This document shows, piece after piece, positions 1,282-26,325 of a stretch of DNA of 64,000 nt. How positions within the stretch are numbered: the stretch's first letter is position 1; each line of letters opens with the position of its first letter. This DNA comes from Thermoplasmata archaeon (lineage in GTDB: Archaea > Thermoplasmatota > Thermoplasmata > Lutacidiplasmatales > UBA184): positions 3,672-67,671 of the forward strand of contig DAHXNZ010000002.1 in assembly GCA_027365105.1 (NCBI GenBank). The letters run 5' to 3'. The notes under the pieces are model-generated. The model saw only the letters and a program-made list of their open reading frames with translations. It did not search any database and was not told the origin of the DNA. The position numbers were made by a program, and so were the translations under genes.

Positions 1282-2565
1282 GGTTCGTTAGCAAATAATC
1301 GCTTTATCTAGTAGAATGGGCATCCCCCATCGTGGATGTTCGGGCGCTCCGGGAGAAGTTCGCCTCCTTGGAGGGGGCTCTCGACGAACGCCGTCGCCGG
1401 TTGGTCTTCGCCGCCGAGGCCCGGGCCTTGGGCTATGGGGGAATTCAACTTGTCCATGAGGCGACCGGAATGGCCCGAAGCACCCTCGCCCGAGGGATCC
1501 GGGACCTGGCCCACCCCCCTCGGATGCTCACTTCTCGCATCCGTCGGTCGGGTGCCGGACGCAAGTCCCTCGTCGAGAAGGACCCCGACCTACTCCCCGA
1601 TCTGGAGGCCCTTGTCGAGCCGGGAACCCGTGGAGACCCGGAGACCTCCCTCCGCTGGACCCTGAAGAGCGTCCGAGTGCTCTCCCGGGAGCTCCATCGG
1701 AGAGGTCATGAGGTCAGTTATCCGGTGGTGGCCGAACTCTTGTCGAAGAACGGCTACAGCCTTCAGGGGAACCAGAAGACGAAGGAAGGCACCCGCCACC
1801 CGGACCGCAACGCGCAGTTCGAGTACATCAACGCCCAGGCGATGGCGCAGTTGAGGGCCGGAGACCCCGTCATCTCGGTGGACTCGAAGAAGAAGGAGTT
1901 GGTGGGCGAGTTCAAGAACGGGGGGAAGGAGTGGCGACCCGCGGGGATGCCGGAGAAGGTGCGGGTGCACGACTTCCTGATCCCGGAGAACGGGAAGGCC
2001 ATCCCCTACGGGGTGTACGACCTCAAGCGCAACAACGGCTGGGTCAGTGTGGGGATCGACCACGACACGGCGAGCTTCGCCGTCCACACCATCGGGCGAT
2101 GGTGGAGGAACATGGGTCGAGCCGCCTACCCGCGGGCCCGGTCGCTGCTCCTTACGGCGGACGCTGGGGGAAGCAACGGTCCCCGGATCCGTCTCTGGAA
2201 GTGGGAGCTTCAGCGGTTCGCAAACCGGACCGGCCTGACGATCCATGTGCTCCACTTCCCTCCCGGGACGAGCAAATGGAACAAGATCGAACATCGGCTG
2301 TTCTCCTTCATCACGCAGAACTGGCGAGGACGACCCCTGACGAGCTTGGCGGTCATCGTGAATCTCATCGGGTCGACGCGAACCCAGACGGGGTTACGAG
2401 TGCGCGCGGAACTCGACCGAGGGAAGTATCCCGAAGGCCGGGAGATCACGGACGCTCAGATGGCTCGAGTCCACGTGCGTCCGGACGAGTTTCACGGTGA
2501 CTGGAACTACTCCATCCTCCCGAGAAGGACTGTCCGAAGTAGAGCGATTAAAAATTAACGAACCC
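1281..2565 (+). mobile_element. ISAzo13-family insertion sequence (~1.28 kb) with imperfect 22-23 bp terminal inverted repeats and flanking TTA(GGG) direct repeat
   Basis: The left end GGGTTCGTTAGCAAATAATCGC (1281-1302) pairs with the reverse complement of the right end GCGATTAAAAATTAACGAACCC (2544-2565), 17/22 matching and perfect over the outer 10 bp. TTAGGG occurs at 1278-1283 and at 2566-2571, consistent with a short target-site duplication. A single transposase ORF lies inside, and both ends are locally AT-rich. Confidence 0.7.
1332..2558 (+). CDS. DDE transposase, ISAzo13 family (DDE_Tnp_ISAZ013-like)
   Basis: 408 aa with an N-terminal HTH region and a C-terminal block ..HVLHFPPGTSKWNKIEHRLFSFITQNWRGRPL.. 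that I recognise as the ISAzo13-family signature. It is bracketed by the terminal inverted repeats. Confidence 0.75.
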   Translation: MDVRALREKFASLEGALDERRRRLVFAAEARALGYGGIQLVHEATGMARSTLARGIRDLAHPPRMLTSRIRRSGAGRKSLVEKDPDLLPDLEALVEPGTRGDPETSLRWTLKSVRVLSRELHRRGHEVSYPVVAELLSKNGYSLQGNQKTKEGTRHPDRNAQFEYINAQAMAQLRAGDPVISVDSKKKELVGEFKNGGKEWRPAGMPEKVRVHDFLIPENGKAIPYGVYDLKRNNGWVSVGIDHDTASFAVHTIGRWWRNMGRAAYPRARSLLLTADAGGSNGPRIRLWKWELQRFANRTGLTIHVLHFPPGTSKWNKIEHRLFSFITQNWRGRPLTSLAVIVNLIGSTRTQTGLRVRAELDRGKYPEGREITDAQMARVHVRPDEFHGDWNYSILPRRTVRSRAIKN

Positions 2566-2593: not shown

Positions 2594-3238
2594 TCACGCC
2601 TTCTGCGCCGTCGGATCCAGGGTCTGGAGCCAGAGCCGGCCCGGGCCGGTGACTTCGAGCGCCTCGAAGCTCATCGCGTGGCCGAGGAGTCCGCCTCCGA
2701 CCGGCTGGTTGACCGACTTGGCCTGGACGCTCGCGTCCTTGAGGAGGAGCGCCCCGTGGTCGATCTGGATCGTCTCCTGGGCGGCCAGCGTGAAGGAGAG
2801 GACATTGCCGTGCCCGTGGAGTGCGACCGTCCCGGGCCCCGAGAGCCGGTCCAGGAAGAAGCCGACCATCCGCCCGATCCGCCCCGTGCCCTTGACGTAT
2901 TCGATGTCGTAGCGGACCGATTCGGTCGCGCAGAGGAGCGAACCCTCGGCGACGTCGACGGTCTCGTTCGGGGCGAGCACGAGCGTGCGGACCTCCCCCG
3001 GGCCGGCGCGGCTCAGCGCGACGTACCCCGGGCCGGTGAAGGTCACCTGGTGGTAGGGGATCCCGCCGATCATCCGGCGGACCGCCCCGCTGAATCCGCC
3101 CTGCTGGATCGCCCGGAGCTGCGGCTGGATCGTCGGGTCCATGTAGACGTCGAGTCCGCTCTCGCAGAAGATCTCCTCGCCGGCGCCGAGCTTCACCAGG
3201 GCCACCGGGATGAACGCCCCCCGAACGTCGATCTCCAT
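2594..3238 (-). CDS. AIM24/DUF124 family protein (TIGR00266), paralogue 1
   Basis: MEIDVRGAFIPVALVKLGAGEEIFCESGLDVYMDPTIQ...TFTGPG...LSGPGTVALHGHGNV. Typical AIM24-type beta-rich protein with GPG motifs. Start ATG at 3236-3238; the R-rich N-terminal extension of the track ORF was discarded. Confidence 0.7.
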   Translation of the reverse strand: MEIDVRGAFIPVALVKLGAGEEIFCESGLDVYMDPTIQPQLRAIQQGGFSGAVRRMIGGIPYHQVTFTGPGYVALSRAGPGEVRTLVLAPNETVDVAEGSLLCATESVRYDIEYVKGTGRIGRMVGFFLDRLSGPGTVALHGHGNVLSFTLAAQETIQIDHGALLLKDASVQAKSVNQPVGGGLLGHAMSFEALEVTGPGRLWLQTLDPTAQKA

Positions 3239-3240
3239 TG

Positions 3241-3897
3241 TCACACCCCGCTCTGCAGAAGGACCTGGCCCGGACCGGTGTAGTGGACCTGGATCATCGG
3301 CCGCGTCACAAAGCCGGTCGGGTTGGGCAGCCAGTAGGAACGGACTTCGAGTCCGACCGTGTCGGCGCATCCCAGGAAGGAGGGGATCGAGCTGCGCATC
3401 TCCTCGCCGGGACCGAGGGTGAACTGGAGGAGGTTCCCGTGCCCCTGGACGACCGCCTGGCCCGGACCGGTCAGCTGATCGCCGACGATCGTCCCGTACT
3501 GGCCCTGGCCCCCCGGGGTCGGGATCATGTACCGGGCGAGGAGCATCGGCCGGTACCGGACCGTCGAGTCGAAGGCGATGAGATGACCCTGGCTGAACTG
3601 GAGCGACTGGCCGGCCGGGATCGTGATCACCCGCGCCTCGCCGCCCTTGTCCCGGGAGAGGGTGAGGCTCCCGGGGCCCTCGAACTCGGCGAGGAAGTAC
3701 TCCTCCTCGGTCCCGCCCTGGCTCTGGAGCATCATCAGTTCCCCGAGGCCCACCCCGAGCGATCTCAGCGTCTGACGGTGGAGCTGGATCGACGGCTCCT
3801 TGTAGAGCATGAGCCCGTGCGGGGCGAGCGCCTTTTCGCCCGGGGCGAGCCGGACCAGGACCGCGGGCGTGATGCTACCGACGGTGTCGGCCTTCAC
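3241..3897 (-). CDS. AIM24/DUF124 family protein (TIGR00266), paralogue 2
   Basis: VKADTVGSITPAVLVRLAPGEKALAPHGLMLYKEPSIQ...EFEGPG...LTGPGQAVVQGHGNL; clear paralogue of the neighbouring genes. Proposed GTG start at 3895-3897 overlaps the TGA stop of the upstream zinc-ribbon gene (GTGA). Confidence 0.65.
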   Translation of the reverse strand: MKADTVGSITPAVLVRLAPGEKALAPHGLMLYKEPSIQLHRQTLRSLGVGLGELMMLQSQGGTEEEYFLAEFEGPGSLTLSRDKGGEARVITIPAGQSLQFSQGHLIAFDSTVRYRPMLLARYMIPTPGGQGQYGTIVGDQLTGPGQAVVQGHGNLLQFTLGPGEEMRSSIPSFLGCADTVGLEVRSYWLPNPTGFVTRPMIQVHYTGPGQVLLQSGV

Positions 3898-4091
3898 GAG
3901 GAGTTCTCCGGGGTCGAGTCGAGGACGTCCAGCGTGAACCCGGTGCCGCAGTACGAGCACTTCGCGATGCCGTTGTGGATGTCCTCGGGGCCGAGCTTCG
4001 CGCCGCAGCTCCGGCAACTGAGGGCCTGCAGGGACGCGCGGCTGATCGTCACTTCGGTCCGCTTCTTCACAAATTCGTCCGGAATCGGCAT
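3894..4091 (-). CDS. small zinc-ribbon protein (2x CxxC), translationally coupled to AIM24 paralogue 2
   Basis: 65 aa: MPIPDEFVKKRTEVTISRASLQALSCRSCGAKLGPEDIHNGIAKCSYCGTGF..; CxxC...CxxC spacing typical of a zinc ribbon. Its stop overlaps the downstream GTG. Confidence 0.5.
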   Translation of the reverse strand: MPIPDEFVKKRTEVTISRASLQALSCRSCGAKLGPEDIHNGIAKCSYCGTGFTLDVLDSTPENSS

Positions 4092-4117
4092 TGCCCTTCC
4101 TCGTCAGATTCCCCGGT

Positions 4118-4765
4118 TCAATAATGCGGTTGCTTGGGATCGATGCTCTGCAGGGCCACCGCCCCCGGGCCCGTGAGCTCGAGCACCTCGAACGACTCGA
4201 ACTTTCCCAAGAGCCCGCTTCCGAACGGCAGGTTGGCCGTCTTGGCCTGGACGCCCGCGGCCTTGTAGAGGAGCGCGCCCAGGTCGGTCGTGATCGTCTC
4301 CTTCGGCGCGAGGGTCATCGAGATGATGTTGCCGTAGCCGTGGATCGCCACCTTGCCGGGGCCGCTCAGCCGGTCGAGCCAGAAACCGACGATCCGACCG
4401 GGCCGGTGCGTGCCCTTGACGTACTCCATCGAGTAGCCGATCGAGTTGGAGGCGCAGAGCAGCGAGCCCTCCATGATGTCCATCTCCTGGCCGGCGGCAA
4501 TCTCGAGGACCCGGATCTCACCGACCCCGTCCCGGGAGAAGGCGACATGGCCCGGGCCGGTGAACTCGGTCAGGAAGAACGGCATGCCGCCGACCGAGAC
4601 CCGCTCGGCCCCGGCGAGAAGGCCGCCGGATTTCACGGTCTTCCGGCCGACCGTGACCGGCGGCTCCTTGTAGAGCATGATGCCGGCCTCGCCGTAGATC
4701 GACTCTGAGGGGCCCAGGGTCGCCAAGACCGAGGGGACGAGGCCGTCCACGATTTCGAGGTCCAT
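4118..4765 (-). CDS. AIM24/DUF124 family protein (TIGR00266), paralogue 3
   Basis: MDLEIVDGLVPSVLATLGPSESIYGEAGIMLYKEPPVTV...EFTGPGHVAF...LSGPGKVAIHGYGNI; same family as the two genes above. Confidence 0.7.
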   Translation of the reverse strand: MDLEIVDGLVPSVLATLGPSESIYGEAGIMLYKEPPVTVGRKTVKSGGLLAGAERVSVGGMPFFLTEFTGPGHVAFSRDGVGEIRVLEIAAGQEMDIMEGSLLCASNSIGYSMEYVKGTHRPGRIVGFWLDRLSGPGKVAIHGYGNIISMTLAPKETITTDLGALLYKAAGVQAKTANLPFGSGLLGKFESFEVLELTGPGAVALQSIDPKQPHY

Positions 4766-5681
4766 CGCGTTCCTCGAATGTCAGCGGGGCATAAAACGTG
4801 CCGGCGAGAACGCCGGTCCGCCACCCCCCGGCGGGCCGGCTGGACCTCGGAAGTCTCCCCGCGGGCCCCCGTCATCCACCGCCGCGGCGGCCGCTCGACC
4901 TCCTTCCGACCCTTCCGGCGGCCTTCGCACGCCGCGCCCGCTTGCGATCCAGACCCGGCGGCACCCTGCCCGAACCGAAGCGATGGTGATCCTTGGGGGT
5001 GGGCCCCGACAGGTCCCGCGTTCTCCGCCTCGGCGGGTAGACTGGGGGGTGCTCGTGGACGGCCGGCTGGACTCCTCAAGGGGGGTTTCTGAAGGGTCCG
5101 GGAACCCGTACGAGCGGGGGGCCGTCGTTCCAGCGAGGGTCCCCGCCGCCCGATGCCGCATCGTGGGCCGGTTCTCCTTCGCACTCCCAAGGAACCGCTC
5201 GGGATCCTCCTGGACCGGGCTCGAAAGGCCACCCCCTCCCGCCGGGTCGTCCCGCGCGCTCGGATCGTCCTCTCGGCTCACCCGCACTCCGCCCTCGCCG
5301 CTACCCCCCGCAGGCGGGCAGGCCCGGAGAACCCCGGCCGCACATGGCCCGGATTTTTCGGGGAACACGGACGGTGAGGATCCAGCGGCGGTGCATCCAG
5401 AGCTCGGAATCGGCGCCGCGCCCTCGGCGCCGGCGGGACCGACCCGGTGGCGAGCCATTCACCGCCCTCGCCGCAGGGAGCCCTCGTCGCAGCATCGGCG
5501 AGCGGTTCTGCTCGAATCGGCCGATCAGGGCACACGCCCGGGGAACCGGGCGACCGGCCCGGCGCGGTCGCGACGCGGGGGCGAGCCGGCCAAGCGTTGA
5601 AATAGGCTCGGCTCCCTTGGACGGCTCCGGAACCTCGTCGGGGCCCTCGGGCCTCCCCAGTCCCGGGGCGGTGGGAGGATC

Positions 5682-23368: not shown

Positions 23369-23394
23369 GACGCTTGTCGAACGTCAGAAGTGTA

Positions 23395-26325
<2,931 letters not shown>

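Follow-up and report, generated by a model that had tools for sequence, protein, structure and literature searches.

A conserved module of three ancient AIM24 paralogues and a predicted zinc-ribbon gene in Lutacidiplasmatales archaea

Composition of the module

In the present study, 64,000 nucleotides (nt) of DNA from a Thermoplasmata archaeon of the order Lutacidiplasmatales (GenBank assembly GCA_027365105.1, contig DAHXNZ010000002.1, positions 3,672 to 67,671; hereafter the window) were analyzed, and a compact module was characterized in which three paralogous genes of the AIM24 family are combined with a small gene encoding a predicted zinc-ribbon protein. The four genes, referred to as A1, Zn, A2 and A3, are all on the minus strand, head to tail, within positions 4765-2594. 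The three AIM24-like genes and the embedded 65-amino-acid (aa) CxxC..CxxC gene were found at the coordinates that had been assigned to them in a sequence-only reading of this DNA. The features of the locus are as follows.

4791..4796, minus strand: candidate promoter of the operon, a TATA-like TTTTAT box located 26-31 nt upstream of the A1 start
4118..4765, minus strand: A1, AIM24 paralogue 1; ATG start, 215 aa; first gene of the module
4092..4117, minus strand: A1-Zn spacer, 26 nt; purine-rich tract GAGGAAGGG at 4094-4102
3894..4091, minus strand: Zn gene (predicted zinc ribbon); ATG start, 65 aa; C26/C29 and C45/C48
3241..3897, minus strand: A2, divergent AIM24 paralogue; GTG start, 218 aa; start overlaps the Zn stop
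2594..3238, minus strand: A3, AIM24 paralogue 3; ATG start, 214 aa; last gene of the module

The stop codon of the Zn gene and the GTG start codon of A2 share the sequence GTGA (3897-3894), and two nucleotides (CA) separate the A2 stop from the A3 start, both as previously described. The broader claim that all of these genes are translationally coupled thus stands for two of the three junctions but not for A1-Zn, where a 26-nt spacer is present; the GAGGAAGGG tract in this spacer may have a ribosome-binding role. AT-rich boxes (TAATAT, TTTTAT, CATAGTA) were observed 25-45 nt upstream of A1, on a GC-rich background, in most of the loci that begin with A1, and the TTTTAT box of the window is a putative promoter. 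The window has a G+C content of ~70%, and the long plus-strand open reading frames (ORFs) over the module region are shadow ORFs of this GC-rich genome. In the genuine frames, the G+C content at third codon positions (GC3) ranges from 0.91 to 0.94 over the four genes (A1 0.93, Zn 0.91, A3 0.94), and in the N-terminal extensions of two 258-aa ORFs it is just 0.48-0.53. In related genomes, the same four genes are called at 215, 65, 218 and 214 aa. These two results indicate that the 258-aa ORFs are artefacts, in agreement with the earlier judgement of the extended versions.

Membership in the AIM24 family was supported by a hidden Markov model (HMM) search, in which all three ORFs matched the Pfam model PF01987 (205 positions; gathering threshold 25.7 bits): A1 with 120.9 bits (7.7e-35; model positions 4-204, residues 6-207), A2 with 71.1 bits (1.4e-19; model positions 7-204) and A3 with 122.9 bits (1.9e-35; model positions 6-205). 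The more specific label TIGR00266, which had also been proposed, has to be dropped. The scores of 28.0, 14.0 and 51.4 bits for A1, A2 and A3 with the NCBIfam HMM are far under the curated cut-off of 96.6 bits, and the three proteins are therefore not members of this mainly bacterial and haloarchaeal hypothetical equivalog but distant homologues, with ~30% identity to Firmicutes members and partial HMM alignments. The proteins share the fold of the solved AIM24 members 1YOX and 1PG6, the former being matched by A3 in phmmer at 1.8e-8. Each of A1, A2 and A3 consists of three repeats of ~64 residues, and every repeat closes in a (T/S)GPG turn (GPG at residues 70, 135 and 199 of A1); profile-profile comparison of the repeat sub-alignments with hhalign gave probabilities of 97.1-98.4% and E-values of 1e-10 to 5e-14. 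Each AIM24 protein is a pseudo-threefold all-beta protein. No transmembrane (TM) or hydrophobic segment was found in the four proteins (maximum Kyte-Doolittle 19-residue hydropathy 0.5-1.31), and the AIM24 proteins of the window lack the C-terminal extension of the membrane-anchored AIM24-B/PAWH-like type. Gly/Ala/Ser-rich C-terminal tails of 25-40 residues, ending in short hydrophobic motifs, are present on some A3 orthologues, and a Gly/Ala-rich insertion is present in some A2 orthologues; these cases concern the A2 or A3 genes of L011, L015, L018 and L048 and the proteins P0147, P0154 and P0164 (L and P numbers denote retrieved loci and proteins), and neither feature is present in the proteins of the window.

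The Zn protein is composed of an invariant N-terminal peptide (residues 1-21, MPIPEEFVKKRTEVTISRASL), a CxxC...CxxC ribbon and a variable tail. In an alignment of 35 sequences, C26-x2-C29 and C45-x2-C48 are invariant, consistent with a generic zinc ribbon and a predicted metal site, and residues 1-21 are nearly invariant, with a conservation exceeding that of the ribbon. In the AlphaFold2 monomer model, the ribbon was predicted with a local distance difference test score (pLDDT) of 71-82 and with short strands around the knuckles, and residues 1-21 appeared as a low-confidence coil (pLDDT about 50). High conservation together with disorder of the protein alone is the signature usual for a peptide that folds on a partner. 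Matches to the curated zinc-ribbon models Zn_ribbon_3, DZR, LysW, L37ae, RpoP and Elf1 were all sub-threshold, the best scores being 19.9 bits for Zn_ribbon_3 (cut-off 27) and 16.7 bits for NCBIfam L37ae (cut-off 87). The names L37AE/L43A, Elf1 and RpoP, automatically given by the Joint Genome Institute (JGI) to the homologues P0006, P0012, P0015, P0018, P0033 and P0039, were thus rejected as unsupported. A search of 1.84 billion representative proteins with the Zn profile retrieved three full-length clusters and one fragment; the remaining matches cover the generic ribbon part alone, and an AIM24 domain is lacking in the ten weak hits of greater length. A 325-aa protein (P0182) was considered as a fusion and rejected as a frameshift-fused A2/A3 fragment.

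Distribution, history and genomic context

Several results describe the distribution of the module. First, when the Zn alignment was used to scan one genome per Genome Taxonomy Database (GTDB) species, 44 loci were obtained, and 44/44 belong to Thermoplasmata. The order A1-Zn-A2-A3 was observed in 33 of these loci (A2 is frameshifted in one, and another is truncated by a contig end), Zn-A1-A2-A3 in nine and Zn-A2-A3 in one (L007); the remaining locus is cut directly after the Zn gene. The junctions between genes range from -4 to +62 nt over the species, and the A1-Zn spacer measures 7-39 nt in the other A1-first loci. Conservation of the Zn ORF in related genomes, a point on which the earlier proposal depended, was accordingly observed in these 44 species and in 41 homologous protein clusters at 58-97% identity, all from Thermoplasmata. 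Second, since this retrieval was anchored on Zn, metagenome contigs were scanned with A2 as a reverse check. Sixteen A2-type loci were obtained, and the Zn gene was located directly upstream of A2 in all 15 with upstream sequence. Third, the four genes were also observed, in unchanged order, in a low-GC divergent Thermoplasmatota lineage (L037, L076). The module is largely confined to Lutacidiplasmatales, plus this one low-GC lineage. The nearest relatives of the window are metagenome-assembled genomes labelled Thermoplasmata archaeon, several of them from the study that defined Lutacidiplasmatales, an order (Terrestrial Miscellaneous Euryarchaeotal Group, TMEG) with a G+C content of ~69% and 2.1-Mb genomes that is found in acidic soils (PMC9287336).

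The three AIM24 genes were previously described as a tandem triplication. Three paralogues are indeed present, but the pairwise identities of 51% (A1-A3), 34% (A1-A2) and 30% (A2-A3) indicate that the triplication is old, not a recent tandem duplication. When 135 AIM24 proteins from the modules were placed in a neighbour-joining tree with bacterial TIGR00266 sequences as the root, A1, A2 and A3 formed three monophyletic clades, with A1 and A3 as sisters. Both gene orders are represented in every clade, as is the divergent L037 lineage; the triplication is therefore older than the lineage split, and the three copies have been kept separately since then. Relative to L001 and L006, which are ~89% identical to the window, the ratio of nonsynonymous to synonymous substitution rates (dN/dS) was 0.09-0.14 for the AIM24 genes (A1 0.09-0.11, A3 0.13-0.14) and lowest, at 0.04, for Zn; all four genes are under purifying selection.

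Three further observations concern loci with a different arrangement. The Zn-first order belongs to one lineage (L003, L017, L023, L028, L034, L036, L039, L041, L046 and L049), in which A1 is shorter (206 aa) and, by phmmer scores, A1 and A2 are far more diverged than A3 and Zn, a difference that hints weakly at co-evolution of A1 and A2 after the rearrangement. In L007 (4274-5792, Zn-A2-A3), the place of A1 is taken by a gene for an ABC-type permease together with ~340 nt that are non-coding. In L078 (4001-4660), a single AIM24 gene that is 50% identical to A3 lies beside a gene for a beta-helix protein, with neither a Zn gene nor further AIM24 genes nearby, and may resemble the state before the triplication.

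The genes surrounding the module differ between lineages. By Pfam annotation, the neighbours are the small subunit of DNA polymerase D (PolD), CutA and phosphoglycerate kinase in the lineage of the window; UvrB and an ABC transporter in a second lineage; an electron transfer flavoprotein, an Fe-dependent repressor and a major facilitator superfamily transporter in a third; and aspartyl-tRNA synthetase and endonuclease V in a fourth. When the nearest flanking genes were clustered after filtering by GC3, no flank family was conserved in more than 7/44 loci, indicating that the four genes are a self-contained functional unit. Two candidates for an additional conserved gene upstream of A1 were rejected: a 14-locus cluster was an artefact arising from an alternative reading frame of A1, and a 333-aa membrane protein is confined to L004, L005 and L045.

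In the window, an ISAzo13-family insertion sequence lies immediately downstream of A3 (1284-2579), encoding a 408-aa transposase (1332-2558, plus strand; PF07592, 3e-141) and bounded by imperfect terminal inverted repeats (1275-1306 and 2540-2571). A 776-nt GC-rich segment (4809-5584) separates the core promoter of A1 from the divergent gene for the PolD small subunit; it is single-copy in the window, and no coding periodicity, repeats, Rfam match or similarity to any fetched locus was detected in it. Both the element and the segment are absent from the 87-89% identical relatives L001, L006 and L059. Elsewhere in the window, a complete archaeal 23S rRNA gene was found at 23389-26321, and neither a tRNA gene nor any 16S or 5S match exceeding the Rfam gathering score was found in the 64 kb. 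Unlinked rRNA genes are typical of Thermoplasmatota, and a 23S gene without 16S and 5S in the window fits this pattern.

The variable genomic context, together with the bracketing of the module by the ISAzo13 element and the 776-nt insertion, might point to a mobile defence or conflict system that moves between genomes. Nevertheless, the module has an unchanged position in close relatives, and the two insertions are confined to the lineage of the window. No contig or locus examined contained more than one module, essentially every sampled species of the order has it, and the trees of the paralogues are mutually congruent. The module encodes no nuclease, ATPase or toxin domain, PADLOC-DB v2 contains no match for A1, A2 or A3, and the weak zinc-finger matches of the Zn protein to Cas12 TNB regions (E 0.002-0.04) are noise. 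We consider a mobile system very improbable.

A possible hetero-oligomeric scaffold

Herein, we propose that the module encodes one soluble hetero-oligomer that acts as a non-enzymatic scaffold, a proposal that we judge nearly as likely to be right as wrong. First, the four genes would form one operon, transcribed from the TATA-box promoter just upstream of A1. Second, the products would assemble in the cytoplasm, with A1, A2 and A3 packing together as three non-redundant AIM24 subunits. Third, the 7-kDa Zn protein would be a fixed partner whose N-terminal peptide, MPIPEEFVKKRTEVTISRASL, would mediate docking, probably by adding a beta-strand. The complex might function as a scaffold or adaptor like eukaryotic AIM24 for MICOS (the system that organizes contact sites and cristae in mitochondria) and the Hrd1 complex of endoplasmic-reticulum-associated degradation (ERAD). 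We infer co-transcription, the physical complex, the docking mode and the scaffold role alike. A hetero-oligomer with the Zn protein as a stoichiometric partner was already suggested by the sequence-only reading, and this idea is strengthened by the strict two-way co-occurrence of the genes, by three paralogue clades that separated long ago and were each retained, and by purifying selection together with the invariant N-terminal peptide of the Zn protein. In a more specific version, A1, A2 and A3 would form an obligate 1:1:1 heterotrimer, in which nine cupin-like repeats build a closed or near-closed beta assembly that is locked by the inserted, invariant N-terminal strand of the Zn protein; this version seems to us rather doubtful.

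Alternatively, the AIM24 proteins might act separately or as homo-oligomers after sub-functionalization, and the Zn protein, rather than being a structural subunit, might regulate the operon or its products by binding nucleic acid or post-transcriptionally. A lone AIM24 protein is viable, since numerous bacteria and one A3-like relative have single genes, and PDB 1YOX contains six identical chains. The conserved peptide of the Zn protein includes a basic KKR patch, and the order around the Zn gene has changed once with the module retained. However, Pfam and NCBIfam scans revealed no helix-turn-helix (HTH) or other DNA-binding domain in the Zn protein, and the Zn family is restricted to the module. 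In the loci examined, the Zn gene never occurs without AIM24 genes and A2 never without Zn, and essentially no lineage has lost any of the three paralogues. Separate action with a regulatory Zn protein is, in our view, unlikely.

The conserved residues bear on a third possibility, namely that the module is a stress-response unit that binds a ligand or metal, in analogy to the AIM24 genes linked to TerD tellurite-resistance operons; a small molecule would be bound by the double-stranded beta-helix repeats and sensed or relayed by the zinc ribbon. At the positions that are at least 90% conserved over the three paralogues, Gly, Pro and Leu predominate, and E21, S77, R78, E83, R85, Y111, N146 and E156 are also among them. 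No His or Cys reaches this level of conservation across the paralogues, which argues against a cupin-type metal enzyme; a conserved His/Cys/Asp cluster as in cupin metal sites is likewise absent, and the cupin matches are weak and local. Anantharaman, Iyer and Aravind reportedly described AIM24 in 2012 within group I ter operons, a conserved arrangement with presumed interacting partners. A conserved operon with presumed partners is thus common to both systems; however, the archaeal modules have no ter genes nearby. The Ter domain was absent from the Pfam-annotated neighbours in five distinct contexts of the module, and no TerD or other stress gene was linked to it in the loci inspected. A stress-response unit is therefore considered quite improbable.

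Several points also weigh against the proposed hetero-oligomer itself. Tight operons also encode proteins that do not bind each other. The polar residues listed above could form a ligand site rather than an interface. A1 is missing beside the module in L007, and fusion of a zinc ribbon to AIM24 is known from a single case, described below, whose 52-58% identical homologues have no ribbon. Moreover, the scaffold role is suggested by analogy with distant, membrane-anchored eukaryotic homologues, and the archaeal proteins have no such anchors.

Relation to known AIM24 systems

The module differs from other members of the AIM24 family (PF01987/DUF124; arCOG01907; PDB 1YOX, PA3696, and 1PG6, SpyM3_0169) in that three ancient paralogues are fixed together with a dedicated Zn protein. 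In the literature searched, no published description of such a fixed triplet with its own zinc-ribbon partner was found. The solved bacterial proteins 1YOX and 1PG6 are structural-genomics products with no known partner or function. In Clostridia, a conserved tandem AIM24 pair was observed, although these are pairs, not triplets, and have no Zn gene; the pair (261/250 aa and 223/214 aa) lies at 3167-4672 in L050/L051 and at 3173-4645 in L080/L081, between the genes for an M50-like peptidase and glycogen synthase, a context that was read as Clostridia. In the Chloroflexota member Ca. Chlorohelix allophototropha, the plasmid-encoded protein WP_341472007.1 (L056, 3761-4636) carries an N-terminal CxxC..CxC ribbon fused to AIM24 through a low-complexity linker, but the N-terminal peptide of the archaeal protein is not present. 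No further fusion of this kind was found on plasmids, and homologues from Burkholderia, Caballeronia, Nostoc and Mycolicibacterium, 52-58% identical, have no ribbon; the Rosetta-stone evidence from this protein is therefore anecdotal. Thus, both tandem AIM24 paralogues and the combination of AIM24 with a zinc ribbon recur in bacteria.

Among eukaryotes, yeast and Arabidopsis have AIM24 proteins that stabilize membrane complexes, namely Aim24 for MICOS and PAWH1/2 for Hrd1 ERAD (PMC3975624, PMC6677890). According to these sources and a further one (PMC10203443), these proteins of the same domain family are non-catalytic stabilizers of multiprotein complexes, and they serve as the model for the scaffold reading proposed here. 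In contrast to the archaeal proteins, which have no TM segments, the eukaryotic proteins are membrane-associated, with C-terminal TM helices in AIM24-B. The archaeal module has no MICOS or ERAD partners and combines a triplet with the Zn protein.

The absence of an established function in archaea, noted in the earlier reading, is consistent with the listing of arCOG01907 (AIM24) among widespread uncharacterized archaeal families (PMC6393860). Few protein families that lack an assigned molecular function are as widespread as AIM24 (arCOG01907/COG2013), which has members in archaea, bacteria and eukaryotes; its eukaryotic members touch MICOS, ERAD and fungal cell-fusion signalling. If the complex proposed here is not real, the module is an ordinary conserved operon of unknown function. 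The module provides a concrete, testable subunit composition of four small soluble proteins, along with a peptide that is a candidate for the interaction. Should the complex prove real, it would offer a convenient entry to the biochemistry of the whole AIM24 family. Moreover, the heterotrimer, if true, would be the first defined AIM24 holo-complex and a tractable prokaryotic model for the roles of the family in mitochondrial MICOS and plant ERAD.

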